A stretch of 64,000 bases of DNA from a virus. Taxonomy: Duplodnaviria > Caudoviricetes. Made by a program: the position numbers and the translations under genes. The DNA is taken from the IMG/VR virus record IMGVR_UViG_3300032893_001402, positions 22 through 64,021 of that record. One strand, written 5' to 3'. Shown here piece by piece: positions 13,812-62,648 of the stretch; position 1 is the stretch's first letter; every line of letters starts with the position of its first letter. The notes under the pieces were generated by a model that did no database searches, had not been told where the DNA came from, and saw only the letters and a program-made list of their open reading frames with translations.

Positions 13812-13833
13812 GCGATCCGCGTTCCTCTCATTG

Positions 13834-13869: not shown

Positions 13870-13891
13870 GGTTTACAGTAACTCGTGCCAC

Positions 13892-15973: not shown

Positions 15974-15974
15974 G

Positions 15975-16571: not shown

Positions 16572-16651
16572 ATTAGCTCAACAAAAACGCGCCGAGTGGG
16601 GCTAGTTGTGGACGGACTAGACTCCCACCCGGCGCGGAGCAAAGAGCTTGC

Positions 16652-17728: not shown

Positions 17729-17749
17729 GGACTTTGCTCCAAAATTGGG

Positions 17750-18601: not shown

Positions 18602-18602
18602 G

Positions 18603-19938: not shown

Positions 19939-19940
19939 GG

Positions 19941-20504
19941 CTAGGACCTTTCAAAATGGTAAAACGCGCTTGCCAACACGACTTCGCAGCGTTGAGCCAG
20001 CAGCCCACGGCTTACAACAGGGGCCCGTAGTATAGCCGCCGGATGCACGATATTTACCGTATGGCAGTCCACGTAGGTCGGGCTCAACAGTTTCGGCAAC
20101 CAATTCTCGGCTAGCTTACCGACTCCGATGATGATTTTCGGGTCCGCGATCTGCACAAGCTCGTTTAGTCGATCCGCACAAGCTCGGATCGCTTTAGGCG
20201 GCGGTTCAGCGGCTTTGTCGGCTCCATCCCGGGGGATACAGGCTACCAAATTTGTTAGCGCAATCCTAGGCCGTGCCTCAGAGCCCTCTAGCGCACGCTC
20301 GATAATCAAATCAAGCAAATGCCCCGCCGGACCTCGAAAGGGCGAACCCAACACATCTTCGCTCTCGCCTGGGGCCTCGCCGACAAAAAGCGTATCGCAG
20401 GGGAGCCGCCCACGTACCAAGACGACGTGCTTTCTAGTATCGCATAAAGGGCAGAGCTTGCAGGCTTGCCAATGAAGAACATGGCTCTCATACGGAGTTC
20501 TCAT
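19941..20504 (-). CDS. Uracil-DNA glycosylase family 4 (Fe-S)
   Basis: CKLCPLC, VGEAPGESED, PFRGPAG, TNLVACIP, HPAAILR. Confidence 0.9.
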   Translation of the reverse strand: MRTPYESHVLHWQACKLCPLCDTRKHVVLVRGRLPCDTLFVGEAPGESEDVLGSPFRGPAGHLLDLIIERALEGSEARPRIALTNLVACIPRDGADKAAEPPPKAIRACADRLNELVQIADPKIIIGVGKLAENWLPKLLSPTYVDCHTVNIVHPAAILRAPVVSRGLLAQRCEVVLASAFYHFERS

Positions 20505-28660: not shown

Positions 28661-30559
28661 ATGTCCCCACGTCGCCCTACTCCTACCCCTAAACCAAAAT
28701 CCCCTAGCCAAGCTCCGCAGACGAGCCCTGTCGCCTCTGGGCCGGCTGAGGCTATTCCTCCCCGTTCCAAACAGGAAGGCCCTGAGGAGCGTTCTACGGG
28801 CTCTAGCAATGCTAGTAATAATGGGGGAGAAGCCATCCGGTTAGGGGGTACGCCTCTGGTCCGCCCCAAGCCTAAAGACGCGCCGCATGTGCTGGTAGAA
28901 GCCTATGCGGGAACCGGGAAAACTTTTACTGAGATTGTCGGAGTAGGTTGGGCATTCGCGCCTAGTCTGTGGACTCAAATCCAGGCCGAGATTACTCGAC
29001 GCGCCGGATTACCTGAGGGTACTCCGATAGTCCCTAGCCCAGAGCAGCAAGCCGTATGGGATGCTCTGCGGCAAAGCTCTGGCATAAAAACTATCGCCTA
29101 TTGCGCGTTTAATGTTTCGATTGTCAAAGAGTTTAGTACAAAGTGGGGCTGGCTGGTCGAGCTACTAAAAACTGTCGGCGTCAATCTCCAGTTTGCGACA
29201 GTCAATGGGCTTGGGAATCGTTCGGTTTATGCGACGTACGGCCGTTGCCAGGTGGTCGATTGGCATACAGAGACTTTACTAGGTCGGTTATTAGGGCGCG
29301 ATACTCGCGATCTAAAGAGGCAAGACGCCGTTTTCGTCAAAGCCTGCTGTGAGTTGGTGGCTCTCTGTAAGCTGACGCTCGCTGGCTGGAGTGAGCGAAA
29401 CGGATTCGACTCCGAAGCCGTGACAGACGAAGTTCTGGACGAGATTTCCGCCCATTACGACCTTGAGTTCAACGGTAGTCGGGAGCGCGTTTATCGAGCT
29501 GTTCCACAACTCCTAGGAGCGAGCCAGGATGTAGCGGCAACGCACGAGATCGATTTCAACGATCAAAATTGGCTCCCCGTAGTTAATGACTTGCCGGTCT
29601 TGAGGCTGGATCTTGTATTAGCGGATGAGGTCCAGGATCTCCCCCGAGCCAAGCAAGAGTTTTTGCGCAAGCTCGGCCGGCGGCTCGTCATGGTTGGCGA
29701 TACTTACCAGGCTATTTACGGTTTTTGCGGGGCGGATACCGAGAGTATGGGTAGGCTAAGGACTCTTCTAAGTCCCACGGCCGATCGACCCATCGAGCCC
29801 CTACGGCTGACTGAGACTCGCCGCTGTGGGCGAGCGATCGTAGCCGAAGCCCAACGCGACGTGCCGGATTTTCGCGCCCACGAATCTAACCCCTCGGGAA
29901 GAGTCGGCCGGATAGAGGCGGCCAAATATATGACTCAAGTCCAAGACGGGGATATGATTCTCTGCCGGGTAAACGCCCCGCTCATTAGCCACGCGCTAAG
30001 GTTCATCAAGGCTGGGCGAAAAGCTGTCGTTAGGGGCCGAGACTTTGGTAAACAGTTGCTTGACTTTGTCGCGAAAATGCGGGCCTTGACTGTGCCGGGG
30101 CTCGTCAGTGCTACGGGGGAGTGGTTGGAACGGGAATGCGCGAAAGAGAATGCCAAGAAAAATCCGAGCGAGGCGCGACTACTGACGCTACAAGACAGGC
30201 ATGACTGCATCTTGGCTTTCTGCGAGGGGGCTACGGATCTTGCGGCGGTCGAAGAGAAGATGCAGCATGTTTTTGCCGGCAAGCAGTGCCCTCAATGCCA
30301 AAAACATTTTAACGAGTCTAGCGAGGAGTGCTTCAGCTGCAAGTGCCGTTTGATTCAGCCTAAGGGAGTAGTTTTCTCGTCGATCCATCGTGCTAAAGGG
30401 TTGGAGTCTCGCCGGGTCTTTATTCTGAGGCCGGATTTGCTCCCTCATCCCTCGGCAAAAAGCCCTTGGCAGCAGCAACAGGAAAGGAATTGCCGATATA
30501 TCGCTGTTACGCGCGCAATTGAGGAGCTAACCTACGTTATAGAGCCGCCGAAGGAATAA
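28661..30559 (+). CDS. UvrD/Rep-like superfamily 1 helicase with Zn-ribbon insert
   Basis: AYAGTGKT, DEVQD, VGDTYQAIYGF, TRRC, SIHRAKGLE, YIAVTRA; CPQC..CFSC insert. Confidence 0.9.
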   Translation: MSPRRPTPTPKPKSPSQAPQTSPVASGPAEAIPPRSKQEGPEERSTGSSNASNNGGEAIRLGGTPLVRPKPKDAPHVLVEAYAGTGKTFTEIVGVGWAFAPSLWTQIQAEITRRAGLPEGTPIVPSPEQQAVWDALRQSSGIKTIAYCAFNVSIVKEFSTKWGWLVELLKTVGVNLQFATVNGLGNRSVYATYGRCQVVDWHTETLLGRLLGRDTRDLKRQDAVFVKACCELVALCKLTLAGWSERNGFDSEAVTDEVLDEISAHYDLEFNGSRERVYRAVPQLLGASQDVAATHEIDFNDQNWLPVVNDLPVLRLDLVLADEVQDLPRAKQEFLRKLGRRLVMVGDTYQAIYGFCGADTESMGRLRTLLSPTADRPIEPLRLTETRRCGRAIVAEAQRDVPDFRAHESNPSGRVGRIEAAKYMTQVQDGDMILCRVNAPLISHALRFIKAGRKAVVRGRDFGKQLLDFVAKMRALTVPGLVSATGEWLERECAKENAKKNPSEARLLTLQDRHDCILAFCEGATDLAAVEEKMQHVFAGKQCPQCQKHFNESSEECFSCKCRLIQPKGVVFSSIHRAKGLESRRVFILRPDLLPHPSAKSPWQQQQERNCRYIAVTRAIEELTYVIEPPKE

Positions 30560-41646: not shown

Positions 41647-42525
41647 TCAGGATAGAGCCAGAGTCGCCCCTATATCGGGAACACTTCCCCCTAAATTACG
41701 CCTGGCAATCGCTTCTACCGGCAAAAGGATCTCGGTACGGCCGTTTACAGTCGGATCTCTGGGGGGAAATTGCAGAGCCCCGAACGTGAATGTGAGAACT
41801 TTCGCGCCGTAATTGAGTTGCAGGCTGGCTCCCGCGTCTGTATTACTAGCCCCGGCGTTGGAAACCATGTCGATCTCAGCCGAAGTAAAGGGAGATGTGA
41901 GACGGAGCGTAACATTGCGATCCGTAGGCATAATTTGCGACGGGTCTTGGTTCTGACGGTACTTAACTTCGAGCGCGTTGCTTATCGATAACTCAAAGTC
42001 CTCAATATTGCGGTTGCTGCTGAGGATCGAAAGCACAGTTCCGAAGATCATCAAGCTGGCGGTGTTCTGATAGGTGACTTCGGGGAAATTTCCCGCGTTG
42101 GCTACTGTCTCTCCGCTAGCCACTAAGTCAAGCGCCAAGCGCATCGGACTTCCCGATGAGCAGCTAAAGCGCGCTGTATCGACATATACACCGCTGTAGG
42201 TATAGACCTTTGTAACTTTGTCGATCGTAAGGTAGCGGCTCTGGAGAGTTTCCGAAGTCGCGTAGTTGTTCCCGCTGGCGTTTGCTCCGAGAATCCAGGG
42301 TAAGAGGTAGGTCAATTCTTCGGGGGAGGGCTGCATCGAGAGCGTGCCGCGGTAGGTATTGATACCGTCCCGGGTGCGAGTGTCCATGTGCTGTCGAGTT
42401 CCGCGCAAGCCTGTCGTATCAACGATCGTGCCCGCTTTCTGCATTGAGCAGTTATCGAACTCGAATCCGTAGCGCACTGTCGATTGAGTATCGATCCCTA
42501 GTTGGGATTGAAAGCCTTGGGACAT
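41647..42525 (-). CDS. Tail tube (major tail) protein
   Basis: Position; TYSGVYVDTARFS, FELSISNALE, RNVTLRLT patterns. Confidence 0.75.
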   Translation of the reverse strand: MSQGFQSQLGIDTQSTVRYGFEFDNCSMQKAGTIVDTTGLRGTRQHMDTRTRDGINTYRGTLSMQPSPEELTYLLPWILGANASGNNYATSETLQSRYLTIDKVTKVYTYSGVYVDTARFSCSSGSPMRLALDLVASGETVANAGNFPEVTYQNTASLMIFGTVLSILSSNRNIEDFELSISNALEVKYRQNQDPSQIMPTDRNVTLRLTSPFTSAEIDMVSNAGASNTDAGASLQLNYGAKVLTFTFGALQFPPRDPTVNGRTEILLPVEAIARRNLGGSVPDIGATLALS

Positions 42526-47983: not shown

Positions 47984-49339
47984 TTACTGGTCAGACGGAA
48001 TCGTGCTCGGCCAATGCCGCTGGACCTTGCGCGGCTCTTTGACGAACGGAACTCCCATTTCGTCCACAAAAATCGAAGCCACAAGCCGCCGATCGGCCAT
48101 CGTGTAGCTATCGGGAGTGGCGCGCGTCGTGGTGAAGGGGATGTTTTCGAGGTAGCCAAACGCGCCTTTGAAGTCTCCGTACCACCAAAGACCATTCGCG
48201 GTAGTTGCCGCGTCGGCAGAGTCCTGACTACCGTAAGCCGAAGTTTCCATCATGGCTTGCGCTTGCCGCCAAAACCATTGGCTAGACATCGGATCGCCGA
48301 TACCCATCTTCACCAGCGGATTATCGCCAAACATACGATACGTCGAAGTCTGGGTTAGCCGCTCTACGGTTGTCGTGCGCAACGTGTGCAAAGTTGTCGC
48401 GAGGTTGATCGGCGCTACAAGCAGTTGGCGATTGGGGCCGATTGAAACGGGCAATCCCGTCTCTTGATCGGTCATCTGAGTGGCGAGGTAAATCGCCGTG
48501 TTGATGTTCGTGTAGTCGGCCAGCGCGTTGCTTGCCGCTTCGTTTACCCAATTGCCGCCGCTGCTGACGTACGTGTTGTAGGTCACGCCGTCATATGTGT
48601 AAGTATTCACATTTCCGACAAATACGTCGGCCATGCGGATCTCTTTACGGATGCGCAGCGTTTCGACCACCTTCTCTGCGTTGGCCAGCACTTGGCCGGT
48701 ACGATCGAACAAGACGGCTTCGACCGTCACGTCAACGGCCGTACCGAAGTTCGTAGTATCGGGAGTCGTGACGTAGCGTTCCGTGAGCTGCATCCGCGCG
48801 TGCTGCTCGCCAGACTTGCGTTCCATAGCCACGTCGCCGGGAATCGAAACCCCGATAAACTTCTGAGCCCGCAAATCGCTGTTGATCGTTTCGGCTACTG
48901 AGTCGGCAATAAAGTCCGGCCGGTTCCAAACGTCCAACATCCGCGCTTCGAGCAGCCCTAGCGCAGCCGAATTGTACGGGGAGATGTCCCCAAACTGTGA
49001 AGGAACCATCGGAGCAGCCCCGGCGGCTTCCATCGCATGGACTTGAGTGGTTATCCCGCCGACAAGAATCCGGCGCAACTCTTCGTCCGACGGATCGCCG
49101 AAGAAAGCCCTAGCCAGCCCCTTAAAGCTGACTTCCTCGGGGCGCACCCGGCCGCCGGGAATCCCCTCGTAACTCTCCAATACCGGAGTCGTCCCCAGGT
49201 CCCCCGTCATGCGACGGCGCAGCGATTTGGTAGCCGGATCGTATTTTCCAAGCCCCAGAATCCCTTGAAGTTTGAGGCTGGCGACATGCGGCCCCTCTTT
49301 TCGCACAACGTCTCTCAAAGAACCCCAATCGAATGGCAT
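47984..49339 (-). CDS. Major capsid protein (HK97 fold, Mu gpT-like)
   Basis: Position after protease and decoration genes; FG..VDVTVEAVLFDRTGQV, LLVAP, WWYGDFK motifs. Confidence 0.85.
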   Translation of the reverse strand: MPFDWGSLRDVVRKEGPHVASLKLQGILGLGKYDPATKSLRRRMTGDLGTTPVLESYEGIPGGRVRPEEVSFKGLARAFFGDPSDEELRRILVGGITTQVHAMEAAGAAPMVPSQFGDISPYNSAALGLLEARMLDVWNRPDFIADSVAETINSDLRAQKFIGVSIPGDVAMERKSGEQHARMQLTERYVTTPDTTNFGTAVDVTVEAVLFDRTGQVLANAEKVVETLRIRKEIRMADVFVGNVNTYTYDGVTYNTYVSSGGNWVNEAASNALADYTNINTAIYLATQMTDQETGLPVSIGPNRQLLVAPINLATTLHTLRTTTVERLTQTSTYRMFGDNPLVKMGIGDPMSSQWFWRQAQAMMETSAYGSQDSADAATTANGLWWYGDFKGAFGYLENIPFTTTRATPDSYTMADRRLVASIFVDEMGVPFVKEPRKVQRHWPSTIPSDQ

Positions 49340-49439
49340 GAATAAATTCCTTATGCTGTAGTGCTGTCGCACTTGCCTGATAGTGCGCTGCGCGGCAACG
49401 TGCCGACAGCGTTACATACGAGAGCGGCCAGAGTGCCGC

Positions 49440-50307: not shown

Positions 50308-51699
50308 CTAAATCATCGACCGGCTACGCAAGCTACTCGCGAAGTCGGCCGGATCGAACGAAGCGCTTTTGTCGTTAGCCCCCGGCTTGGCGCTTTCCGT
50401 AACGGAAGAGGCCGGGACACTCTTCGGCCGAGCGACAGGAATCGCCTTCTTCTGGCCCTGCGCTTGGGTCGGATCGGCATTGGATTCCTTGACGGCGATC
50501 CAAGTGCTCACCAATTCCTCGGCAACGGCCTTGCTCTCGACAACGGCCGCCAGAGCCCTGACTTGAGACGGCTTTGGATTACCGATGCCTTTTTCGGCCA
50601 GCATGTTGCGAGCCAGAAGCTCTTGCTTCAACCCGCGTACTTCGGCTTGCAGAGCCGCAATCCGGTCGGGTTTGGCTTTGCCCTTGCTCTCTTCCTCGGA
50701 ATCCGTTGAAGCCGAATCGTTCGTATCGTCGGCCGCGCCTTCGCCTGACTGAGCCGAACCCGTCTGGCCGCTCAAGTCTTTGTGTTCCAGAGCGCTGGCC
50801 AGCAGCTCGCTGAACTGCTTGACCTTTTCTCCGTTGTCCATATCCGAGGAATAAAGCTTGCAGAGCTTTTCCGCCAGGTCGGCAAACAGCGGATCGCTAC
50901 TGCACATCTCGGCCACCGGCGATTGCTCCATAACATTCGCCGCGTCGTCATTGGTTGTTGCAGTTGCGGCGTTCGGGTTTACAGCCCCCGCCGGATCGCT
51001 CTCGTATCCAGGTCCCGTACTCATGTTATTGCCTTTCATTCCGCGAGGACTCCAGGGATTAAAAAGCGCTCCCTGATTGCGCTGGTTAACGATTTGCCAG
51101 TAGTTGTCTGGATTAACGCTCTCAAAAATCCCCTGGGTCGTAGCGGGGTCCGAGACGAGATCCACCGAACGTACTACCTCGATTGCTTCAACGATAATTC
51201 GCCCGTCTTGGATGCGTTGGCGCTGTAATGCGTTGTGAGACAGGCCGAGTTTGGTGGGGAATCTTTCGCAGTTTTCGCAGACCTGTTCGGCCCGGGGATG
51301 GCTCTTGGTGAAATGCAAATCTGCATACAACCCGTCTTCGCAAACTATGACGTTACGGAGTTCTCCAAACCCATCCTCAAGTTTGCGCTCTACCGTAGCA
51401 TCCGTCTTGCTGATCGGCTTGCCGGCCCCAGGATGATCGAGATAGACGCGAGCCCCTTCGTAGAGATTCTTGGCCGCTTCAAGCACGGCTAGAGGATAAA
51501 TACGATTGTTGCGGCTCTTGAGGCCGATGATCTTGACCCCATGAATCACGCCGTTTTCCCGATCGACGCGCGATGCAATGGCGCCTCTTGGGGGCGGTTG
51601 AAGATCCTCGAAGACCCAGGCGATACCGCGCTCTTGCCGGGATTGCGCTTGTCTTGCCGAGTCTGATTGCTTTGCTTGTTTTGTTGCCGTGCTCATCAT
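50308..51699 (-). CDS. Prohead protease-scaffold fusion
   Basis: SRNNRIYP, YLDHP (His), GLSHNA (Ser), SVDLVSDPAT (Asp), then acidic/coiled scaffold. Confidence 0.85.
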   Translation of the reverse strand: MMSTATKQAKQSDSARQAQSRQERGIAWVFEDLQPPPRGAIASRVDRENGVIHGVKIIGLKSRNNRIYPLAVLEAAKNLYEGARVYLDHPGAGKPISKTDATVERKLEDGFGELRNVIVCEDGLYADLHFTKSHPRAEQVCENCERFPTKLGLSHNALQRQRIQDGRIIVEAIEVVRSVDLVSDPATTQGIFESVNPDNYWQIVNQRNQGALFNPWSPRGMKGNNMSTGPGYESDPAGAVNPNAATATTNDDAANVMEQSPVAEMCSSDPLFADLAEKLCKLYSSDMDNGEKVKQFSELLASALEHKDLSGQTGSAQSGEGAADDTNDSASTDSEEESKGKAKPDRIAALQAEVRGLKQELLARNMLAEKGIGNPKPSQVRALAAVVESKAVAEELVSTWIAVKESNADPTQAQGQKKAIPVARPKSVPASSVTESAKPGANDKSASFDPADFASSLRSRSMI

Positions 51700-52487
51700 C
51701 AATTTCCATAATCCGAATATTCGAGCCAACATCTGCAATTAGGATGCGCCGGAGGTCCCTCGGGGAATTCTTCGGCCCATTCTTCGCTGGGCTTCTGATT
51801 CAGAGGTCTGCAAATAGGACAGACCTTGTCATCCTCGCTCGTATTCCAAATCCAGATACCCGTTGCGAACATCGCAAAGGGCACTTCGTCGGGAGAGATT
51901 TCCTTAGCGATAGGAATCTCATCTACAAGAATCGGCTTGCCGTAGCCCCCGAGTGGGATGGGCTTTAGAAGCCCTCGGCTAGCCGCGATTGCCGATCGCT
52001 GGCCCGCTGTATGGGCTCCCGTAATCGACGTGACGGCGAGCGTGGTAGCTCGATTAGGACCGAATAAGCGATCGAGGCCGGGCGGTGCGAGTCTTGATAC
52101 GGGTGGCCGCTCGTAGGGCCTGAGCAGCAGATAGGCAGCAGCTAATTCGGCGTCATGCTGCTGTTTAAGTTTGCCGTACGCTTCACGGTCTTTTGCCGTG
52201 GCTTCGTCGGCAATCTTTAAGGCGCGTTTTACCGCCCACTCGCGGGCGTTTCGCCGATTCGTCGCAATATCGCCATAGAGGGCATTGGCAGAAACTTCAT
52301 AGACAGGGGCAAGTGAAAGGGCTAAAGCCGACGCTAGTTCGTCGCGGTTGCGCTTCCAATATTCGTCTGTGACAGTTTGATTTGAGGCGACAAGGTCTAG
52401 TAGCCTGCGATGCTGCTTTTGTTGAAGAAGGAAAAGCGTGCCTGCAATAACCCGTTCATACGGGTAACGGTTAGCAAGGTCCGGCAC
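51699..52487 (-). CDS. Minor head morphogenesis protein (MuF / SPP1 gp7-like)
   Basis: W.TSEDDKVCPICRPLN..PPAHPNCRC. Confidence 0.85.
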   Translation of the reverse strand: MPDLANRYPYERVIAGTLFLLQQKQHRRLLDLVASNQTVTDEYWKRNRDELASALALSLAPVYEVSANALYGDIATNRRNAREWAVKRALKIADEATAKDREAYGKLKQQHDAELAAAYLLLRPYERPPVSRLAPPGLDRLFGPNRATTLAVTSITGAHTAGQRSAIAASRGLLKPIPLGGYGKPILVDEIPIAKEISPDEVPFAMFATGIWIWNTSEDDKVCPICRPLNQKPSEEWAEEFPEGPPAHPNCRCWLEYSDYGN

Positions 52488-52543
52488 TAGGTTTCAAGGT
52501 TGGCGTTACAAATCTGGTCACGGTTTCTGGTATAATGCGTGCC

Positions 52544-53140
52544 ATGGGCATTCCAGATTTTCCAGGCTGGCAATTGCTTGGGGCTTTCCCGGACGGCGAG
52601 TCCGACGATGTCGGAAGCTGGCTGCTAGCGGACGGCCGCGAAGCCATGCTCTTGGAAGTCCCACCCGGCCTGACTCCAAGCTACGTGCTTTTTGCTCTTG
52701 AGCGCGCCAATGCGAAGCTGTGCTTCGTGACAGCATCGCATGACCACGAAGACCACCTTGACGCGGACGCCTGGCGTGCCTTGGAAGTGGCGTTCCCACG
52801 AACGAGATTTATCCATCCACAAGAGGTTGATAGATTATTCACGCGCGGCGACTTGAGGCTAACCATCGGAAGCGAGCCTCTTTGGCTCGTCAAAGCGCCC
52901 AAGCATTCGCGCACGGACATAGTGACGGTGTTTCGAGGTGTCGCCATGACCGGCGACATCGAACTAGGAACGCTGGACTCAGTCAACCGCGAAGTCCCCA
53001 AAAAAACCAAAGCCAAGAGCATGGAATGGCTGGCGGCCTTCCAAGATCGTACGGGATACCTCATCCATTTCATTGTCAGCGCCCACCTGAACGATTTTCG
53101 ATTGTCAGTTGATTGGCCTGCCCTCTTTCGCGTTTCGTAA
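52544..53140 (+). CDS. Metallo-beta-lactamase-fold hydrolase (moron-like, antisense to the head operon)
   Basis: SHDHEDH (HxHxDH), PKHS, TGD, SAH; extended -10 TGGTATAAT at 52528-52536. Confidence 0.85.
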   Translation: MGIPDFPGWQLLGAFPDGESDDVGSWLLADGREAMLLEVPPGLTPSYVLFALERANAKLCFVTASHDHEDHLDADAWRALEVAFPRTRFIHPQEVDRLFTRGDLRLTIGSEPLWLVKAPKHSRTDIVTVFRGVAMTGDIELGTLDSVNREVPKKTKAKSMEWLAAFQDRTGYLIHFIVSAHLNDFRLSVDWPALFRVS

Positions 53141-55004
53141 GCATGCTGCGAATAAACCGCACATGCGCCGGATCTTGGCCGGTAAGGTGCGATACGTAAG
53201 AATCGATGGTGAATGGATTGTCCGTCAAATATCCGGACTGGCCACTGTCGTTGGACGGATTGGCCTCGACAACGCGATAGCCCTTGTCGGTTTTCATCAC
53301 GTCCGGCGCATAAATCTGCCCTTGCCGCTCTGAGGCCGGAAGGGCATTGATTGCATCGACGGCTGCTTTGGCCATGGCCCTGGTGTCATCATTCTCGAAT
53401 ACCACCGGCAGCGGCGCATTCTTGATCCAAGTTGCGTGCGGTACAATCGAGGCGACTCCGTTTTGGGTGGTGATATGCACCCTGCCCTCTCCCGGAGCTA
53501 TTGTTTTGCCGGCCGCACGATCGGCGTCCGATACGCCTACCGCCGCAAAAGCTGGCTGGGCCATGAATTCCTTTCCGCCGCCAGGAAGCTCCGCGCCATG
53601 TTCGTTTTGTGCCGCCTCGGCCGCACGATCTGCTAACTCGCGCGCGTGTCCGAAAATCGTGTTCGCGTAGCTCCGGCTGCCAAACTTGTACTGCGTGCCG
53701 TCGGAACCTTTCAGGCCAGCAAGCCTGCCATCCTTGTCGCGGTAGAGTGATAGGCCGTACTGCGACAATTCCTTGTCGGCGTGGTGGATCGTGGATTGCG
53801 CGTCACGTTCGATTTGTTCGGCGTACTGCGGGAAAAAGATCCCGTAACCGGCAGCAGCTTCGTTGCCGTACGCTTTTACAATCCACCGACCCGCCCCATA
53901 TTTATCGTCCAGCTTCTTGCGCACATCGGGCGAGAGATGCGTAACTTCGTGGCCGGCGATCTTGTTGATGTCTTCGCTGGATTCGAGCCCTGGCAGCTTT
54001 TTGGCTTCGTCCAATTTGTTGACAAGGTTGGGTTCGGCAGATTGGAAGTCGCCAGGCTTATCGGCCTCGTAACCGCGGAACTCTTTGGGCTCGGATGAAA
54101 TGCTGCGCTTCCCCTCGATGCGCCTGCTCGACCTGTTGAGCGTAATCCCGGTGCGCTCCAAATACTTTTGAGCGAATTCAGCGGCCGGTAAACCGCCAGT
54201 GAAATCCTCGGGTGCCGCTGCACCTTGATACTGCACGTCCTGCTTGCCGCCGCCCCTACTCTCCCCAAGAGCCTCAAGAGCGGCCTCAACGCCCACATCG
54301 TTGACATGCGACTTCACCTTGTCGAGCCAGGCGGCTTGTTCGTGTTGGCCGTTTTTGCGGAACAAGCTCGCCACCCGATCAAGCTTTTCGTTTACTCGAT
54401 GGATTTCGGCGGGTAGAGCCTTAGGAGTTCCTGAACGTGCGGGCTGACGCTCACCCTCCCCGCCTTGACTAGCTGCTGCATCGTGGGATGCGCCAGACGC
54501 TCGCGCCACTGGTCCGCCGTCTTGCGGAGTGTCGCTTCGGCCGCTTGGACCTCCTTTTCCTCCTCGCTTGTCAGTGTCACTTTTGCCACCTCCTAGCTTC
54601 GATTTCAGCAGGTCTTTAAGGGCTCGAAACGCATGGCCAAGATGCTTGATACTGACGCCGCGCATGGATGGCGGAATACTTCCGCCGACGATCTTCCCAT
54701 CGCGATCCAGCAGAACTTTGTGGCCACCCCCTTCATCGTCGCCATGAATCGTAATCCAGTGCTCGCCAGATGATTCAAGCGCTGCGCCGTCAAATGACTC
54801 GGCTATCGCAGCTTCGCCATCGTCCGACCCAAGTTCTTTCGGATCGAATCCAAGGATGGCGGTCACGTCTTCCGGTGTTTCCGGCAACTCTTCGTCGTCT
54901 GGATCTTCGTCCACGACGGAGTGCAGCCCTGCCCTCCAGTCAATTGGCGCGCTTTTGGCATCGCCAAAATGAACATCGGCTGGCAGATCAAAAACGCGGC
55001 TCAT
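53076..55004 (-). CDS. Putative head-packaged protein with C-terminal ATP-grasp domain
   Basis: N-terminal HWITIHG..HKVLL motif; C-terminal WIVKA..GYGIF, FMAQP, EGRVH, APDV..YRVVEANP. Confidence 0.7.
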   Translation of the reverse strand: MSRVFDLPADVHFGDAKSAPIDWRAGLHSVVDEDPDDEELPETPEDVTAILGFDPKELGSDDGEAAIAESFDGAALESSGEHWITIHGDDEGGGHKVLLDRDGKIVGGSIPPSMRGVSIKHLGHAFRALKDLLKSKLGGGKSDTDKRGGKGGPSGRSDTPQDGGPVARASGASHDAAASQGGEGERQPARSGTPKALPAEIHRVNEKLDRVASLFRKNGQHEQAAWLDKVKSHVNDVGVEAALEALGESRGGGKQDVQYQGAAAPEDFTGGLPAAEFAQKYLERTGITLNRSSRRIEGKRSISSEPKEFRGYEADKPGDFQSAEPNLVNKLDEAKKLPGLESSEDINKIAGHEVTHLSPDVRKKLDDKYGAGRWIVKAYGNEAAAGYGIFFPQYAEQIERDAQSTIHHADKELSQYGLSLYRDKDGRLAGLKGSDGTQYKFGSRSYANTIFGHARELADRAAEAAQNEHGAELPGGGKEFMAQPAFAAVGVSDADRAAGKTIAPGEGRVHITTQNGVASIVPHATWIKNAPLPVVFENDDTRAMAKAAVDAINALPASERQGQIYAPDVMKTDKGYRVVEANPSNDSGQSGYLTDNPFTIDSYVSHLTGQDPAHVRFIRSMLTKRERGQANQLTIENRSGGR

Positions 55005-57901
55005 GTGCTCTGACTCCAGGTGGCAAACACCGTCGGATCGATGTAGCTCTGTAGCGCCACGGTTGGCGTATTGCCCAGCGCCTTGCTAACGACCGTGGCC
55101 ACCCGCTTCACCGTCTGCTTGTATTCCTTAGGATTCTTGCAGCAAGCGCCAACCTTTTTGATTTCATCGATCGCAAGCGACGTGCCTCGCAGCGTCCGAA
55201 AATCCTTGGGCTTGAAACTGCCGCCGTCAAGCGTGTGTGCATATTTGCGAAGCTCGGAATCGCTGACGCTGAACAAGCGACCGTCGCCAACGACTTGCTT
55301 CCGCTCGCGGAGCATCGAAGCAACTTTTGGGTCCGTGACAGGCAGGTCAAGCTTGACCCCCTTCTTCCCGGTAAATTGCAGCCGCACGCCATCTGGCGTC
55401 TCGATTACGTGGCTGCCGCGCAATGTCGTCGCTCCGTATGCCTGGGCCTTGGCTTGCGTGTCACGCTCGCTGCCAGGCCGAAGGCCCATCGACTGAATCA
55501 ACGCCAAGACGGTTGCAGCCTCGCGCGTTTTTGGATCCCCGCTTTCCATGTCGCGTGAGATTTCAGCTGCAATCCTTTTTTGCTTCTCCATCAGTTCGCT
55601 GATCCGAGCAAACTTGATAGCCGCCTGGCGTGTGGCGTGCGTATCGCTATAGATCGATTGCCGCCGCCCCTTCTCGTCATATCCGGTCGCCAGAAGATCG
55701 CCTTTAGGATCGGGGTTGATCTTCACCCCCGTCCAGGCCGGTGGAATCTTCAAGGCCGCGATATGCGCCGGCAGAGCCTTCCCGCCAACATGCCGCTGCG
55801 CGTCTTTGAGGTGCTTGCCCTCGGCATCCTTGGGATGGTCCGACGCATCGAGCGTTGGTGTCGATTTTGATGAACCAGACCCTCCCTTTGAAACAAACTG
55901 CCCGCCGCCAGGCCCCTTGCCCTTGTGTTCGTGCCCACTAGCGTCCTCGGCTTCTAGGACGCACCGCAAGCTCTCCAGGGCATTGCTGACGGCCTCTTGG
56001 ATTGATTCCCCAGGATCTTCGCCCGTAACCCCTTGTAGGCCTTGCGGAGGGCCCTGAGGAGGGCTTTGGCCGTCCGGTGGATTACCACCATTGGGGGGAG
56101 TGTCATCATTAGGCTTCCCCCCCGCTTGAACTATTTTAGCAATTGGGGGGAGTCCTACTGCCTTGCGCTTTTCTTGCTGGGTGTCGTAATCCAGCTCCTC
56201 TCGCCCCGACCATTCCTGAGGAGAAAGAATCCCGGCGTCCGAGAGGGTTTTATTGCGCGCCGTGGCCTTATCTTCGTCGCGTACCCTGACACTCGGGGGA
56301 ATGACTGTGATTTCCAGTACAGCGCGAATAATTCCCCAAGGTAGAATATCCGGGTTGCCGAACTCTCCACATTGCCAGGCGAACCAAAGAACGCGCAGCA
56401 AGAGTCTCTGCCAGCTCTCCACATGCAGACCTTGACGAGACTCGCATTCGTTAACAAAAGGATCGCCTGCTACAAGCAGGGACGCAAAGTTATTGTTGCT
56501 CGCGTCTCCCGTGAGCATGTTTTCGGGCATCGACCAGACTTGCGCCGCCGATCTCAGGCAGGTATCGCGGATGGCGATAAATTCGTTGGCGAACTCTCCG
56601 ACCGGAGCGGGCTTGAATTGCTTTGCGCCGTTGGTTTGAAGGATCGTAGACGAACGATAACGAAAGCTCGTCTCGTTCGGATTGTTGCGGCTAGGCCTGG
56701 CGCCGGGTTGAAGGTTATTCGAGGAAACAACGTCGCTTTGGAGCACGCCAGGCGCATACTCTTCAATCCAAGCGATGGCCGATTGAACGCTACCGACTCG
56801 GCCGATATTGAGTAGGAGCTTATGGGCAAGGTCAATGGCAATCTGCGAGCAGAATAGATCGCTGATCCCCCGCTTGACATTGGCATCCGTATTGCGCTTT
56901 ATGTGCTCGCACCAAGCCGCCGCACCTTCATCCGGCGGAAGAATCGGATTCACTCCTCCGGGGATATAGCTCCAACTCGTGTCGGCGCTGTGCCATTGGA
57001 AGTAATAGCCGTGGACTCCGGCAATATCGTCCTGAGGGCAATGCACTCCGAATGTCCAACTTGATCGGGGCATGCCGTTCTCTAGCGGCTCGATGCCCAA
57101 CCAGTTGTCCAGGTGTAAAGTGTTATAGGGCTGTGTGTTCTGCTCTGGTTCGGCAAAGCGGAGAGAGCAACGGCCCTCGCCGATATGCCATAAGGTCAAG
57201 TAACTCTCGCCGTCTCTTCCTAGCCGCAACTCGCTTTCACGCTGCATTTCGCTAGCGCGATTCTCGCCACAAAAATCCTCGATAATCGATTGCGCTCTGT
57301 TGACGAGCTTTGTGCCAGTCTCGGAATCGATAAGCCCCCGAGATGAGCGCTTTAGACTCACCTGGGGCTTGAATCCGCGAGGCCCGACAACATAGTTCTG
57401 AAGCTTGGCAAAAGCCCCCTTTGCCGTATCGTTATAAGCCGCTAGAACCCGCGCCATGCCTCGGATTAAGTGCAGGTCGGCCTCTGTATAAAAGATCGGC
57501 CGATTGCGACCCTCTTGGCGATCGCTGCGAGTCGTGGGGTAGGTGCCCCAACCGTAGTATCCGTAGCCCTTATCGGCCGTGAGATACTGCCAGATATTGA
57601 CGACTTCGGAGCCCTCGTTGTCGCACACGCTTTCGAGGGCTCGTTCTATCGAAGCCCCGCCCTCCAGGACATTAGCCAGGCCGAGTCTGGAATCTGGATC
57701 GACGGGAGCTGTCCCCGTCATTTGACGGCGCATATTCTCCCGTACCAGACGATTCGACTCTTTGACCGCTTCGGCGCTCTCGCCTAGGCTCTGAGAGAGT
57801 AGATCGCGCTGAGCTGCAATTTTGATTAGCAGAGCGTTCTTACGTTCGATCGCTTCGAGCCGAGATAACTCGGGATCGTGGGTAGTAGCTTGGTCGATCA
57901 A
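55001..57901 (-). CDS. Portal protein fused to a C-terminal type IB DNA topoisomerase
   Basis: Portal-like N-terminus (RDGESY, RGISDL, MPENMLTGDASNNNFAS); C-terminus has IPPAW, GRRQSIY, GLRPG, GKKG, KDFRT, LGNTPTVALQSYIDP in one frame. Confidence 0.88.
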   Translation of the reverse strand: MIDQATTHDPELSRLEAIERKNALLIKIAAQRDLLSQSLGESAEAVKESNRLVRENMRRQMTGTAPVDPDSRLGLANVLEGGASIERALESVCDNEGSEVVNIWQYLTADKGYGYYGWGTYPTTRSDRQEGRNRPIFYTEADLHLIRGMARVLAAYNDTAKGAFAKLQNYVVGPRGFKPQVSLKRSSRGLIDSETGTKLVNRAQSIIEDFCGENRASEMQRESELRLGRDGESYLTLWHIGEGRCSLRFAEPEQNTQPYNTLHLDNWLGIEPLENGMPRSSWTFGVHCPQDDIAGVHGYYFQWHSADTSWSYIPGGVNPILPPDEGAAAWCEHIKRNTDANVKRGISDLFCSQIAIDLAHKLLLNIGRVGSVQSAIAWIEEYAPGVLQSDVVSSNNLQPGARPSRNNPNETSFRYRSSTILQTNGAKQFKPAPVGEFANEFIAIRDTCLRSAAQVWSMPENMLTGDASNNNFASLLVAGDPFVNECESRQGLHVESWQRLLLRVLWFAWQCGEFGNPDILPWGIIRAVLEITVIPPSVRVRDEDKATARNKTLSDAGILSPQEWSGREELDYDTQQEKRKAVGLPPIAKIVQAGGKPNDDTPPNGGNPPDGQSPPQGPPQGLQGVTGEDPGESIQEAVSNALESLRCVLEAEDASGHEHKGKGPGGGQFVSKGGSGSSKSTPTLDASDHPKDAEGKHLKDAQRHVGGKALPAHIAALKIPPAWTGVKINPDPKGDLLATGYDEKGRRQSIYSDTHATRQAAIKFARISELMEKQKRIAAEISRDMESGDPKTREAATVLALIQSMGLRPGSERDTQAKAQAYGATTLRGSHVIETPDGVRLQFTGKKGVKLDLPVTDPKVASMLRERKQVVGDGRLFSVSDSELRKYAHTLDGGSFKPKDFRTLRGTSLAIDEIKKVGACCKNPKEYKQTVKRVATVVSKALGNTPTVALQSYIDPTVFATWSQST

Positions 57902-58167
57902 GTTGCGTTAATCGTCTTAGGAGGACGGATTCTACGCGGGCCTCGATAATTGAAAATATCGTTGGCCGTGAGGTTCATCAAGGGTCGATACTTCGCATCG
58001 AGCCAGCCTAAAAACCATTGAGTACGGGCTCTTTTGTAGGAAGCCTTCGCGCCGATAACAATCGGATAGGGAGTATCATTAAAGGCCATTCCTGCGCGAT
58101 AAGCTTCTGCTCCGGCATTCCAGGCGTAGGATTTGGAATCGTCGTCAATCAAGTTGGGTTTTGTCAT
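57898..58167 (-). CDS. Rmf-like small protein
   Basis: AWNAGAEAYRAG..TPY..RTQWFLGWLDA pattern. Confidence 0.6.
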   Translation of the reverse strand: MTKPNLIDDDSKSYAWNAGAEAYRAGMAFNDTPYPIVIGAKASYKRARTQWFLGWLDAKYRPLMNLTANDIFNYRGPRRIRPPKTINAT

Positions 58168-58172
58168 GCTAT

Positions 58173-58724
58173 TTATGGCGCTGGCCAGAAAGAAACTCTG
58201 GGCTGAACGGGCGGATTCCAATCGAAAAAGAAGTCTCGTTGGCGTCGATCTTCCTCGCGGATAAGCTCGTCTCTCCATAGCGCCAGTTCCGCGGATAATT
58301 CTAAATCGCGCTTTGGATCGGGCTGCCATTCATCCAAGATGCGCCAATCTTGCCGAGGAAGAGGGGGGCGCGGATCGGGTTTCCAGATCGGGCTGTCGAG
58401 TTCGCCAGGAACGATCGTCTCTGGGCCATCGCCTTCGAGTCTCTTCCAGGGTCCAGCCAGCGCGTTCGTGAGTTCGTAGAGCCAATTGCGGCGCGTTTCT
58501 TTGGCATAGTGGTGCCAGCGGCCGGCAATAATGTCCGTCTCTCGCCAGGATCTCCACTCGTAGCCTTGGGGCTTAGGCTCGACAATTGCGGGCTCCGGTT
58601 TGGACTCACGGGAGTTTCTTAATCGAAAATCGAAGAAAGCCGTTAGAACAATAGCGCATCCAACAACAACAATTGCGCCAAAATCAAGCAAAGACGGTTG
58701 GGGCCTATCTGATTTATTGGTCAT
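58173..58724 (-). CDS. Membrane-anchored Trp-rich hypothetical protein
   Basis: N-terminal TM. Confidence 0.55.
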   Translation of the reverse strand: MTNKSDRPQPSLLDFGAIVVVGCAIVLTAFFDFRLRNSRESKPEPAIVEPKPQGYEWRSWRETDIIAGRWHHYAKETRRNWLYELTNALAGPWKRLEGDGPETIVPGELDSPIWKPDPRPPLPRQDWRILDEWQPDPKRDLELSAELALWRDELIREEDRRQRDFFFDWNPPVQPRVSFWPAP

Positions 58725-58975
58725 GCGATACTCGCCCTAATACGGCGCCAGACTCAAATAACTTAACGAGCAAGTTGCGCATTGCTAGAGATTCACGACT
58801 CCCATAGCTCGGCAGCTATCGCGGATTTCCTTACGCAGCCGCTTAGCGCTGAGCCGTTTTCCTTGTCCGACGGCCTGGGCGATAACCATCCCTCGAACCG
58901 CCCGGCGAATTTTGGGCAGACGTTGTTTCCTTTGGTTGGGTATTGATATACTTGACTCACCAAGGCCCCCGATGA

Positions 58976-59121: not shown

Positions 59122-59376
59122 TCGCCGAACCCCGTTTCGTTCGACCAGGGCAAAGCGTGTGGGCCACCAGCCGTATTCGTCCTTGTCGAGAAACAGGTAG
59201 CCGCAGTCAACGTCCGTTACGGTGTATTGCTCTCCCTCGTTGACCTCATGTTCCGACGTGCCGCCACCTTCGCCGGGCAGACATTCCACAACGTCGCCGA
59301 CTTCTGGCATTTCGCCGGTGCTGTAGTTCCCTTCGTTACTTACGTACTGTCCGCAAACGATAACTGGCCGAGCCAT
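59119..59376 (-). CDS. IS passenger, small acidic beta-barrel-like protein
   Basis: EVGDVVEC..GEQYTVTDV..WWPTRFALV. Confidence 0.6.
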   Translation of the reverse strand: MARPVIVCGQYVSNEGNYSTGEMPEVGDVVECLPGEGGGTSEHEVNEGEQYTVTDVDCGYLFLDKDEYGWWPTRFALVERNGVRR

Positions 59377-59936
59377 TTACTTGATCCCCATAAAGCCCGC
59401 GTCCCCGGTAGCCGTGAGCACGCGGTAAGTGATGCGCTTGCCGACCACCTTGGCCAGCAAGCGCTGAAATCGAACCCCGTCGGTGCATATTGCGGGCCTT
59501 CCCGCCGATGAACGTTTCGTCTACCTCGACTTCGCCGGCCAGCTTGTGGAAGCTCGTGGTCTGCATCGCCAAGCGGATTCGGTGGAGCATAAACCACGCG
59601 CTCTTCTGGGTTATCCCCAGGCCGCGAGCCATTTCATAGCTGCTGATCCCGTTTTTGGCGTTGGCGATACACCAGACGGCGACCATCCAACTGGACAACG
59701 GCAGCGGGCTATCCTCGAAAATCGTGCCGACTTTGCAAGAGAACTGCTTACGGCAGCCCTTGGCGTTGCAGCGGAGCATGGAACGGGTAGCGATCGTGCC
59801 GACCTTTTCGCTACCGCACTGAGGGCAGACGATCGTGCCATCGGGCCATTTGGCTCCAATCATCGCCTTGAAGCACGCGGCCGGATCGGAAAAGTATTTG
59901 ACGGCTTCGACCATGGCTTTCTCAAGGTGTCGGTCA
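59336..59936 (-). pseudogene. IS1595 (ISXO2-like) transposase with internal deletion
   Basis: Zn ribbon CPQC..C..C, GTIFEDS, LGITQKSAWFMLHRIR, VEVDETFIGGK; then jumps in another frame to the C-terminal DGVRFQRLLAKVVGKRITY, so most of the DDE core is missing. Confidence 0.88.
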
Positions 59937-60150
59937 TGGCAAATCCTCAAAATCCAGTCATTGCGTGCGAATGTCCCCACTGGAACAAAGCCCAAAACAA
60001 AAGAGCAAATCCTGGAATGACTATGGCGATTTGCAAGCAGAGCCAATGCCAGTCTTCGTCCATCATGTTCATTCTCCAAAAGCCTGCCGGCGGCTTTCTG
60101 CTTGTGCAGGCGGGGTGATTAGGCCCGCACCGCCGGCAGGGGAGATCGTG

Positions 60151-61169: not shown

Positions 61170-62648
61170 TCACAAACTAGGGATCTGCTCCGTCACGCTT
61201 CCCCCATCGTTATTGTTACGATCGGCGAGGAAATTGATGCTTCTTAGTGCCATCTCCATCGCATCGGGTCCATCGTCGTGCAATCCGAGAGGAAAATTCT
61301 TCAATTGATCGACCAGAATTCTAGTCCCTGGAGTATCGCGAAAACTGACGGCGCGTTGTCTAAACCATGGATCAAGTCTGCGGATTCGATTCTCTTTCGC
61401 CACGCTGTTATTGACCAAGAGCCCTTCACAATCGAGGATTCCCGCGGCTTTTAATTGGCGAACGAACTCAGCCCCTAACAGGTCTTGCCAGGCGTTTCCT
61501 TCCGTAGCCAAAGCCTGAGGCTTGAAGCGGCGAACCAGCTCGACACCGTCGGCAACGATCTTTCCTGGCGATCTGCGAGCTAAGTCGGCTTCGACCCAGA
61601 GGTGGCCCGTTTCGTTCCAGGCCATTAGAATAAACGCGCTATAATCGCTATGGCGCGTACGACCCTTGCTAGGATCAAGGGCAATCACTCGCAAGGGCAT
61701 ATCCCGCGGCCAATCCCTGAACCAGAGGTCGTCTCCCTCGAAGTATTCGGGCGGCCACTCGACGCCAATACCTTGCGTCGGATTCTGCTGGTAAAGAGCC
61801 TGCCACCAGTAAAGGGGCATGCCGTTGCGGATCGTTTCTAATCCGCGCCGCAATAATCTGCCGTCCGGCGAGCGCAGATCGTGCAGGGGATAGCGGTCGG
61901 GCCAAAGGGCTTCTCCGAATACTCTCCCGAGGCTGTCGGATTCCGTGGCTATAGCCGGGAAGGACAGGACTCCCCAAGGTCGATCGCTTTCGGCTCGGAG
62001 CCTTCCCGCCAGGTCTTCCCGGTGCCAACGGGTCATGTTGACAATCACGCTTCCACCGGGCTCCAGCCGCGTCATCGCCGTGGAATGAAACCACTCCCAG
62101 CACGTCTCGCGCTTTACTTCGCTGGCGGCTTCCTGGGCATTCTTGATCGGATCATCGATAATCAGCAGATGAGCCCCTTTCCCCGTCAAGGGACCGCCGA
62201 TACCTGCCGTTTCCATCCCCCCTTCGTGTCCGATCAAATTCCATTCATTTGCAGCAAAGCTCCGATTGTCAATTGCTAAGACTTCGCCATGGTACTGCGC
62301 GAATAGTCTAGGGTCGAGCTGGTTGAACACATTGCGGGATAGTCTGCCATAGCGGCGCGCCTGGCGAGCTTCGTAGCTGACGTAGATTACTCGCCGATCT
62401 GGCCAACGTCCGAGATACCAGCAAGGAAGATACTGGCCGAGATACCAGCTCTTGCCATGCCGCGGGGGCATCTCGCAGATTAACCCAGGCAACCTACCTG
62501 TGACTAGATCCGTTACGCCCCGGTCCAATCTCAACAGATGCTTCGCCGGCTGCCAACGCCCCTGGCTCGCATACCTGGCAAACGTCGCCGGAGTCAGCGT
62601 GTACCTTAAAGAGTCGATCCCGCTCGAATTCGAGGTAGTTCGGATCAT
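61170..62648 (-). CDS. terL: Terminase large subunit
   Basis: MPPRHGKS (Walker A), LLIIDDP (Walker B), TRWH, ALDPS, HDDGPDA. Confidence 0.93.
   Translation of the reverse strand: MIRTTSNSSGIDSLRYTLTPATFARYASQGRWQPAKHLLRLDRGVTDLVTGRLPGLICEMPPRHGKSWYLGQYLPCWYLGRWPDRRVIYVSYEARQARRYGRLSRNVFNQLDPRLFAQYHGEVLAIDNRSFAANEWNLIGHEGGMETAGIGGPLTGKGAHLLIIDDPIKNAQEAASEVKRETCWEWFHSTAMTRLEPGGSVIVNMTRWHREDLAGRLRAESDRPWGVLSFPAIATESDSLGRVFGEALWPDRYPLHDLRSPDGRLLRRGLETIRNGMPLYWWQALYQQNPTQGIGVEWPPEYFEGDDLWFRDWPRDMPLRVIALDPSKGRTRHSDYSAFILMAWNETGHLWVEADLARRSPGKIVADGVELVRRFKPQALATEGNAWQDLLGAEFVRQLKAAGILDCEGLLVNNSVAKENRIRRLDPWFRQRAVSFRDTPGTRILVDQLKNFPLGLHDDGPDAMEMALRSINFLADRNNNDGGSVTEQIPSL

Follow-up and report, generated by a model that had tools for sequence, protein, structure and literature searches.

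The ligase gene and its place in the head module

The stretch of DNA analysed here (the window) spans 64,000 nucleotides (nt), positions 22 to 64,021, of the IMG/VR virus record IMGVR_UViG_3300032893_001402 (Duplodnaviria; Caudoviricetes), which is 64,021 bases long and has a CheckV completeness estimate of 80%. Among the head genes on its minus strand lies a gene for a 642-residue protein, P0001, predicted to be an ATP-grasp enzyme; for brevity we call it the ligase gene, after the chemistry that its conserved residues favour. An earlier note on this DNA had placed such an open reading frame (ORF) here, and the 642-residue ORF fills exactly the interval given there, on the minus strand, which the note had left unsaid.

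The genes for the large terminase (TerL), a portal protein, a MuF-like minor head protein, a capsid-like protein and the tail tube form a single minus-strand block, which marks the virus as a portal-terminase phage and sets the ligase gene in a virion-gene context (Table 1). Directly upstream, a portal ORF carries a C-terminal type IB topoisomerase (TopIB) of the bacterial type. Its portal part matches the lambda-type phrog_21 (E 1.2e-23) and reaches 32.2 bits with Phage_portal_2, slightly below the cut-off of 32.9; its topoisomerase part matches PF21338 (residues 711-742, E 1.7e-9) and PF01028 (residues 761-949, E 5.6e-22), in agreement with the TopIB fusion announced in the earlier note. Three libraries agree on the MuF-like gene, namely Phage_Mu_F (28.7 bits, cut-off 29.6), the PHROG head morphogenesis family (E 1e-5) and NCBIfam phageSPP1_gp7 (E 4e-4). 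The placement of the ligase gene between portal and MuF genes, also put forward earlier, stands as regards the portal gene upstream and the MuF gene downstream, but the latter is not the immediate neighbour: a plus-strand gene for a 201-residue protein of metallo-β-lactamase (MBL) fold, P0169, intervenes. The gene order in the window is portal-TopIB / ligase / MBL (opposite strand) / MuF, each a separate gene. This MBL neighbour, which is conserved, was absent from the earlier note.

The ATG of the ligase gene (55004-55002) shares bases with the TGA (55003-55001) of the 966-residue portal-TopIB ORF. The ATGA overlap, already described in the earlier note, reads as translational coupling of the ligase to the portal-TopIB gene, as judged from the sequence. 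A programmed frameshift that would fuse the two products was considered and rejected: the ligase frame is -1 relative to that of the portal, yet the ATGA junction shows no evident slippery sequence. A scan of 51500-58800 for promoters and terminators gave sites no more numerous than in shuffled sequence.

Two further features of the window were recorded. Between the terminase and portal genes lies an IS1595-type transposase fragment (59336-60079, minus strand; Zn_ribbon_IS1595 E 6e-10, DDE domain over its first 34 positions only), likely the remnant of an insertion in the packaging module. A block of replication and DNA-metabolism genes (9708-20504 on the minus strand and 28661-30559 on the plus strand) encodes an N6/N4 DNA methylase, a family A DNA polymerase with 3'-5' exonuclease, an AAA_24 ATPase, a PD-(D/E)XK nuclease, a UDG-superfamily protein and a UvrD-like helicase.

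Table 1. Features of the ligase locus and of the head block, in coordinates of the window (aa, amino acids; AF2, AlphaFold2; HMM, hidden Markov model).
Feature	Coordinates	Strand	Basis or remark
Ligase gene, product P0001, 642 aa	53076..55004	minus	ORF and translation; acidic N-terminus, 45-aa WITI motif, Gly-rich linker, helical hairpin, predicted ATP-grasp
Acidic N-terminal segment, residues 1-81	54762..55004	minus	composition, 23 D/E and 4 K/R
WITI motif, about 45 aa, residues 80-122	54639..54767	minus	iterated local HMM
Gly/Ser/Ala/Pro-rich linker, residues 137-196	54417..54596	minus	composition
Conserved helical hairpin, residues 197-255	54240..54416	minus	AF2 helices, alignment consensus
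Predicted ATP-grasp module (pre-ATP-grasp, RAGNYA and kinase-like domains), residues 256-610	53175..54239	minus	AF2, structure searches, conservation
ATGA start/stop overlap, portal-TopIB/ligase	55001..55004	minus	direct sequence reading
Portal fused to C-terminal TopIB, 966 aa	55001..57901	minus	Pfam, PHROGs
MBL-fold gene, product P0169, 201 aa	52535..53140	plus	convergent with ligase; HxHxDH
MuF-like minor head protein, 262 aa	51699..52487	minus	sub-threshold matches over C-terminal ~45 aa
Large terminase TerL	61170-62648	minus	same head block
Capsid-like gene	47984-49372	minus	same head block
Tail tube gene	41647-42525	minus	same head block

Fold, catalytic residues and relatives of P0001

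As a single sequence, P0001 finds no match in Pfam, PHROGs or NCBIfam, nor by tblastn in 50,697 phage records, and its best phmmer match among PDB sequences (E 0.051) is an unrelated CheD-like chain. Its relatives fall into 330 representative clusters at E<=1e-3, 159 of them below 1e-30, in a library clustered at 50% identity; 25 homologues are close to it in length. Alignments delimit a conserved module of ~430 residues, about 195-625 of P0001. For the counts given below we collected 165 proteins, P0001 and 164 relatives of 36-60% identity to it, some of which give more than one HMM domain hit. A local core HMM finds the module in 165/165 of these proteins, which have a median length of 1,176 and a maximum of 3,137 residues. 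In the 158 that hold it at full length, the module is C-terminal in 64, internal in 67, N-terminal in 16 and essentially solo in 11. The named relatives come from Planctomycetota (Fimbriiglobus, Gemmataceae) and from Rhodopila and Saccharibacteria metagenome-assembled genomes (MAGs). Because of the latter two, a planctomycete host for the phage of the window is only guessed.

The AF2 model of residues 195-642, built on a 47-row alignment, has a mean predicted local distance difference test (pLDDT) of 93.3 and a predicted template modelling score (pTM) of 0.88. Foldseek returned 71 PDB matches at E<=1e-3, and every one among the matches listed is an ATP-grasp enzyme, including RimK (7qyr, E 2.6e-5, probability 0.97), Ddl, BacD/YwfE, PurK, ITPK1 and PurD. 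Realignment of the Foldseek candidates with VIA-align placed first LysX 3vpd (Z 10.0, 228 aligned residues, root-mean-square deviation (rmsd) 4.7 Å), followed by LysX/ArgX 5k2m (Z 9.7), RimK 5zct (Z 9.6) and BacD (Z 9.4). The structural matches cover model residues 59-423, those of VIA-align 59-416, and so take in the entire ATP-grasp including its N-domain. A Foldseek-independent search of 48,161 representative PDB chains gave a similar picture, with 16 chains at Z>=8 and top scores for 5k2m (9.7), TTLL11 (9.5), BacD (9.4), DcsG (9.1) and RimK (9.1). Judged by title, all 50 of the 50 rows among the matches listed are ATP-grasp proteins; a few of these identities are presumed, with 5jcb chain F taken as tubulin tyrosine ligase, some chains as synapsins, and parts of 9kkm and 9zvm as biotin carboxylase.

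Residues 256-610 are thus modelled as an ATP-grasp with pre-ATP-grasp, RAGNYA and kinase-like domains, as the earlier note had called it, and the motifs picked there (WIVK, QP, E.RVH, D and VVEANP) turn out to be the conserved ones. Directly N-terminal to it, and still inside the ~430-residue module, the model shows a helical hairpin (helices at model residues 7-23, 27-43 and 45-51, pLDDT >90) that falls outside the region aligned to PDB ATP-grasp chains.

The sections of PMC4431377 covered here list as superfamily features a linker lysine between the pre-ATP-grasp and RAGNYA domains, a lysine that ends RAGNYA strand 2, with a ~9-residue ssxGbGl loop behind it, and, in the kinase-like domain, an Asp in strand 4 and an ExN that ends strand 5; an Arg (ExR) in strand 1 marks the amide-bond-forming assemblage. 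We counted the corresponding positions in the aligned HMM domain hits of the collected proteins. Lys330 (model residue 136) is present in 165/165; it lies between the N-domain and the Lys377 strand, and its equivalence to the linker lysine is drawn from this position. Lys377 (W374-I-V-K377, in the strand of model residues 180-184) is kept in 165/166 and is followed by the loop A383-A-A-G-Y-G-I389, with Gly386 in 155/166 and Gly388 in 163/166. The hinge residue Gln483, within MAQPAF (481-486), is found in 160/169. The ExR appears as E506-G-R508, with the Glu in 167/167 and the Arg in 166/167, and is followed by His510 (167/167), so that EGRVH occupies 506-510. In the kinase-like domain we looked for the strand-4 acidic residue and the ExN as Mg2+ ligands, and the feature is present: Asp568 (APDV, 566-569; strand of model residues 374-378) in 165/166, and E580-A-N582 (VVEANP, 578-583; end of the strand of model residues 381-386) with 165/166 for each of the two.

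These motifs are more than chance resemblances, because they are invariant or nearly so across the 165 homologues. Such a catalytic set is the pattern expected of an active enzyme under selection for catalysis, and we consider it very probable that P0001 is an active ATP-grasp enzyme. A structural or scaffolding domain that keeps the ATP-grasp shape without activity would fit the lack of any curated enzyme family matched above threshold, but the conservation of every catalytic position in proteins as divergent as these leaves that view with almost no probability.

What the enzyme joins, or transfers, can be narrowed in part. RimK, LysX/ArgX and the TTLLs are ATP-grasp ligases that work on proteins, to which they attach amino acids at the C-terminus or on side chains. 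These protein-tagging enzymes (LysX/ArgX, RimK, TTLL11) rank first structurally and share with P0001 the motif order K, ssxGbGl, hinge Q, ExR, D and ExN; they differ from it in an identity of 10-13%, in the extra N-terminal helical hairpin of the P0001 module and in its longer loop after ExN. Since Ddl, BacD, DcsG and GshB score within 1 Z unit, the subfamily and the substrate class are not assignable; a protein substrate is a reasonable guess, and a host protein as the target is pure inference.

The ExR favours amide-ligase chemistry, as far as sequence motifs can. A rival view has P0001 as an ATP-grasp kinase of a small molecule or protein (compare ITPK1, PPIP5K and synapsin types), or as an enzyme directed at RNA or DNA, that forms no amide bonds. 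ITPK1 (2qb5, Z 8.9) and PPIP5K2 (Z 7.3) do come within ~1-2.5 Z units of the best ligase matches, and the frequent fusion of the module to TopIB, HNH and 2H domains would suit an enzyme of nucleic acids. However, the top-ranked matches are amino-acid ligases, there is a pre-ATP-grasp domain as in ligases, and the invariant Arg of the ExR marks the amide-ligase assemblage in the covered text of PMC4431377. We therefore regard ligation as the better description of the chemistry and its replacement by a kinase or nucleic-acid activity as very unlikely.

The earlier note had suggested comparing the structure with the RimK and R2K ATP-grasp families; the superfamily fold and the RimK-type structural matches came out as proposed, and membership of the R2K clade did not. 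That clade (CDC123/R2K.1, R2K.2/DUF4343 and R2K.3) resembles the P0001 family in that it includes phage ATP-grasp ligases predicted to modify host proteins in conflicts, according to the portions of PMC4431377 covered here. R2K_3 (PF14243) is also the sole Pfam family with recurrent weak matches: 7/47 family members, P0001 not among them, reach 15.9-17.3 bits where the cut-off is 26.3 (best E 9.5e-4), and the matched part is limited to ~45 residues around D...ExN. The P0001 family, in contrast, keeps the putative linker lysine (the invariant Lys330) and the ssxGbGl loop (AAAGYGI), both missing from R2K as described in that text, and has no K/R at the second loop position, either in K377-AYGNEAAAGYG or in the consensus KAYGDxAAAGYG. 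R2K.3 in particular is rejected by VVEANP, an ExN and not the ExGD of that group, and by scores under the gathering threshold.

Membership of the RimK family was rejected as well, in the absence of a significant profile match. No Pfam match to RimK (PF08443) was obtained for the core at E<=10, and a PF08443 search of the phage's own genome came back empty; the similarity (Z 9.1-9.6) is at superfamily level only. In the hhalign comparison with RimK, the one aligned segment, itself not significant, sets Asp568, Glu580 and Asn582 on RimK residues 248, 260 and 262. The nearest ESM-Atlas feature clusters (score 0.87), which serve as leads only, are of TTL/R2K_3/Ddl, RimK/GSH-S and ITPK type.

N-terminal to the module, P0001 has the acidic segment and the Gly-rich linker pointed out in the earlier note, together with the motifs HWITIHG (82-88) and HKVLL (95-99) that it listed. 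The latter belong to the WITI motif, with the pattern WITIGG..H.GG..V.ID..G.I..GP and the full consensus SEGHWITIGGHPEGEEHVGGTHVFIDKDGRIVKGPAALTGKKVKEL. Of the 165 collected proteins, 24, one of them P0001, have it upstream of the ATP-grasp; it is also present in the loci L005, L006 and L007, and it occurs once in the window. No Pfam model matches it, and residues 62-140, searched by themselves against a database, found nothing but the query; the motif may, as a guess, be a docking or linker module. In the linker, 15 residues are Gly and 35/60 are G/S/A/P, and matches to relatives are of low complexity only.

Portal, MuF and payload domains around the module

To see which domains share a polypeptide with the module, 119 relatives were scanned with Pfam, with E limits that varied between scans (0.01, 1e-4, 0.5 and 1e-4) and with some matches under the gathering score. 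A portal or MuF domain is found in the same polypeptide in 22/119: portal domains of the Mu, SPP1, lambda and Phage_portal_3 types in 13/119, and MuF in 9/119. The remaining partners are Kinase-PolyVal (12/119), C39-like peptidase (6/119, or 7 when one weak match is counted), NUDIX, ADP-ribosyltransferase (ART) and 2H phosphoesterase (4/119 each), HNH (3/119), TopIB (2/119, P0037 and P0070), GNAT (2/119) and sigma-70 regions (1/119).

The genomic surroundings were compared in 12 loci: the window, L001-L007 from IMG/VR, and L009-L012. In L002 the module forms the C-terminus of a 1,972-residue portal fusion that is followed by a MuF gene, and in L003, L006 and L007 it is fused to MuF. The MAG locus L010 shows a weakly portal-like protein of 1,367 residues that ends in the module, with a MuF gene downstream, and in L005 the module comes two genes after a 2H-TopIB protein. 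The swappable cargo slot that the earlier note had imagined in the head module fits these loci and fusions: at the portal/MuF position of related phages, ATP-grasp, TopIB, ART, kinase, NUDIX, 2H and C39 domains are either joined or split, and their order varies.

Sigma factors are a further element of this neighbourhood. In P0165 the ATP-grasp is joined on its C-terminal side to sigma-70 regions 2 and 4, L005 has a clearer sigma factor gene (8229-8957) right after the ATP-grasp protein, and the window itself encodes a sigma-70-like protein (6804-7553, plus strand; region 2, E 8e-5). Because of these three cases, a sigma factor may be another payload of the head-module system.

T4 Alt ADP-ribosyltransferase, P1 DarB and the N4 virion RNA polymerase are enzymes made late, loaded into the head and injected, and they act before phage gene expression. 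The concept that we propose for P0001 is the same; those proteins differ in fold and chemistry, and their packaging is experimental where that of P0001 is proposed. The T4 enzyme is cited in both PMC5512222 and PMC4431377. A closer parallel is given by the polyvalent proteins and their solo versions. In the portions of their paper covered here, Iyer et al. (2017; PMC5512222) argued that multidomain proteins linked to portal or MuF moieties are packaged by means of these moieties and injected with the DNA. P0001 resembles that group in its head-module position in a portal-terminase phage, in the occurrence of its module in giants of two to many domains, and in the module's partners, namely MuF, portal, ART, Kinase-PolyVal, NUDIX, 2H, GNAT, HNH and C39-type peptidase. 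Unlike them, it is a short single-enzyme version encoded by a separate gene, and an ATP-grasp amide ligase is missing from the domains named in the main text of PMC5512222, where 'ATP-grasp' appears twice, about RNA ligases. In that part of the source 40 unnamed LPD domains are counted, and one of them could in principle correspond to the module; the Pfam LPD models gave no match at E<=0.01 and a single LPD39 match at E 0.02. In the literature texts covered by our search, we found none that describes an ATP-grasp amide ligase as a portal or MuF fusion or counts one among the domains of polyvalent proteins. Within that scope, the P0001 family is best described as a new enzyme family in a known kind of system, that of virion-borne polyvalent or solo effectors, and not as a new category.

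We consider it fairly probable, for the chain as a whole, that P0001 is an active ATP-grasp amide ligase of an unnamed family, is expressed along with the portal, travels in the head, enters the cell together with the DNA and modifies its target early in infection. Mechanistically, the ligase would be made together with the portal through the start/stop overlap, would most likely be packaged with the portal-TopIB and MuF proteins, and would leave with the DNA. In the new host it would draw on the ATP of the cell to convert a carboxylate to an acyl-phosphate, which it would then couple to an amine. Most plausibly, and in the manner of RimK, LysX and the TTLLs, it would attach an amino acid or a short peptide as a tag to a protein of the host (or of the phage). 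The earlier note had also proposed a packaged and injected effector. In favour of this part are, indirectly, the covalent fusions of the module to portal or MuF and its travel with effector domains; from this recurrent company we infer the packaging of the stand-alone version, and hence its delivery, which go beyond what the sequences display.

Coupling to the portal gene inside the head module would equally suit an enzyme of morphogenesis, one that modifies head components (portal, MuF, scaffold or internal proteins), for example by the addition of acidic tails, in the producer cell and has no role in the next host. The tethering to portal or MuF in relatives would set the ligase beside such substrates, and ATP is present in the producer cell and not in a sealed capsid. 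The domains that accompany the module (ART, Kinase-PolyVal, NUDIX, 2H, TopIB, HNH and C39) are, however, of effector and not of assembly type, and no obvious acidic C-terminal acceptor is seen: the MuF-like protein ends in ...EYSDYGN and a 476-residue protein in ...RSRSMI. A purely morphogenetic role appears improbable to us; such a role would not exclude delivery as well.

Several results weigh against a delivered ATP-grasp ligase, at the level of the fold as well as of packaging. The structural scores are moderate (Z 9-10, rmsd 4.3-5.7 Å, Foldseek TM 0.2-0.38), and by the structure search tool's own account, models that lack a true counterpart commonly reach a best Z of 7-8. No Pfam family reaches its gathering score for P0001 and NCBIfam and PHROGs yield nothing; the family profile has no ATP-grasp match among PDB sequences at E<=10 (best E 0.18, an unrelated protein), and its hhalign comparison with the single sequence of E. 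coli RimK is not significant (probability 0.56%, E 0.1). The kinase ITPK1 ties with the ligases in structural score. As to the virion, 97/119 relatives, many of them from short contigs or fragments, have neither portal nor MuF in the polypeptide; P0001 itself lacks both of these domains as well as any recognised capsid-targeting signal, and carries a single enzymatic domain. Its acidic segment is unconserved even in the closest full-length relative, P0003, with which the BLASTP alignment begins at residue 83. One locus (L011, below) has no Pfam-recognisable phage gene among the 7 ORFs scanned. Moderate TM and rmsd values are expected for a three-domain hinge enzyme; since the Z scores are moderate, the fold call rests on the uniform hit list together with the motif evidence.

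The MBL-fold neighbour and the meaning of the pair

The intervening plus-strand gene shares 65 nt with the 3' end of the ligase gene, where the conserved C-terminus of the MBL protein stands against an unconserved tail of the ligase. Its codon-position GC content (0.63/0.44/0.63) resembles that of the flanking genes (about 0.63/0.47/0.6). A 130-residue ORF on the minus strand (52681-53073), which had been considered as a small gene for a possible LysW-like carrier, has values of 0.41/0.60/0.63 and a translation rich in S, R, W and C, and was rejected as a shadow of the P0169 gene. P0169 has 425 homologues at E<=1e-3; the 119 matches listed are 58-68% identical to it, some of them automatically annotated as hydroxyacylglutathione hydrolase. 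No Pfam family matches the protein, and NCBIfam gives GloB with 16 bits only. Its AF2 model has a pLDDT of 93.0; Foldseek gave it at least 500 matches at E<=1e-3, and the 39 matches listed are all of MBL fold (GIM-1 at E 2.3e-9, glyoxalase II, ETHE1). The predicted metal ligands (S68-H69-D-H71-E-D73-H74, H124, D141 and H184) vary in at most 10% of 45 aligned sequences, if at all. By model and motifs, P0169 is predicted to be a member of the metallo-β-lactamase superfamily with the αβ/βα fold and the HxHxDH, H, D and H motifs. The idea that it might be an anti-Pycsar MBL of Apyc1 type received no specific support, the Foldseek rows listed being β-lactamases, glyoxalase II and ETHE1.

An MBL gene adjoins the ligase gene in 5/12 loci. 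It follows the ATP-grasp gene directly and on the same strand in L001, L009 and L011, and is convergent in L012 and in the window, where the inverted repeats that flank the inverted gene are short (12-14 nt) and unconvincing. In the three MAGs with both genes, the adjacent MBL copy is the only close one. Among 401 Planctomycetota genomes, a close MBL homologue was found only in the one already known, and five distant ones (E ~1e-36 to 1e-21) all come without the ligase. A scan of viral contigs with the P0169 protein alone was empty and with its alignment gave the L001 contig only; a metagenome scan for the association found at least one true relative, on a 1.7-kb contig. L011, on a 1.04-Mb contig of a Planctomycetota MAG, has a 670-residue ligase protein and the MBL gene (7311-9924) beside a glucoamylase-like gene. 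Outside intact prophages, too, the two genes may occur together as a cassette.

Such pairing hints at a link in function, in which the MBL protein would provide a second enzymatic step or act as an antidote or eraser. Taken by itself, it could mean that the two enzymes form a cassette that acts, in the cytoplasm of the infected or lysogenic cell, on a small molecule, such as a glutathione-like thiol or peptide or a nucleotide-derived signal, and that the position in the head module is incidental, as for a moron. The recurrence of the pair, as the sole close MBL copy in the MAGs, the complete metal-binding motifs of P0169, as close to glyoxalase II and ETHE1 as to β-lactamases, the presence of GshB (glutathione synthetase, Z 8.7) among the structural matches of the ligase, and a locus such as L011 with no recognisable phage genes nearby are consistent with this. 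On the other hand, most relatives have the ligase within portal- or MuF-containing polypeptides with no MBL gene in the DNA examined around it (L002-L007 and L010), the inversion of the MBL gene in two loci argues against obligate co-translation, and what matches the MBL protein most closely is common to the superfamily at large. We regard the cassette as an unlikely explanation, though the likeliest of the rivals, and prefer a ligase delivered with the phage DNA.

A more daring form of delivery would bring both genes together. The ATP-grasp tethered to portal or MuF would be a new class of injected 'writer' that sets amino-acid or peptide tags on a host target within seconds of DNA entry, and the MBL neighbour, expressed from the phage genome, an 'eraser' or guard that undoes or forestalls the modification in the producing cell. 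This scenario is speculative and we would give it only a small probability. If true, it would mean that an effector/antidote pair is built into the phage head module, and that the ligase is one of several interchangeable payloads (TopIB, ART, kinase, NUDIX, 2H) on a portal/MuF chassis.

The family lends itself to study beyond this one phage. It comprises at least 330 clusters at 50% identity, its active site is complete and its model is of high confidence, which makes it a well-defined and tractable biochemical target, and the repeated fusing and splitting of modules around portal and MuF amounts to a data set on the shuffling of injected payloads. Proteins that a phage brings along in its capsid are at work before its genes are switched on and so decide survival against the first host defences. 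The cargo chemistries known so far are ADP-ribosylation, phosphorylation, methylation, nuclease, peptidase and RNA synthesis; an ATP-dependent amide ligase, if true, would add peptide tagging to them.

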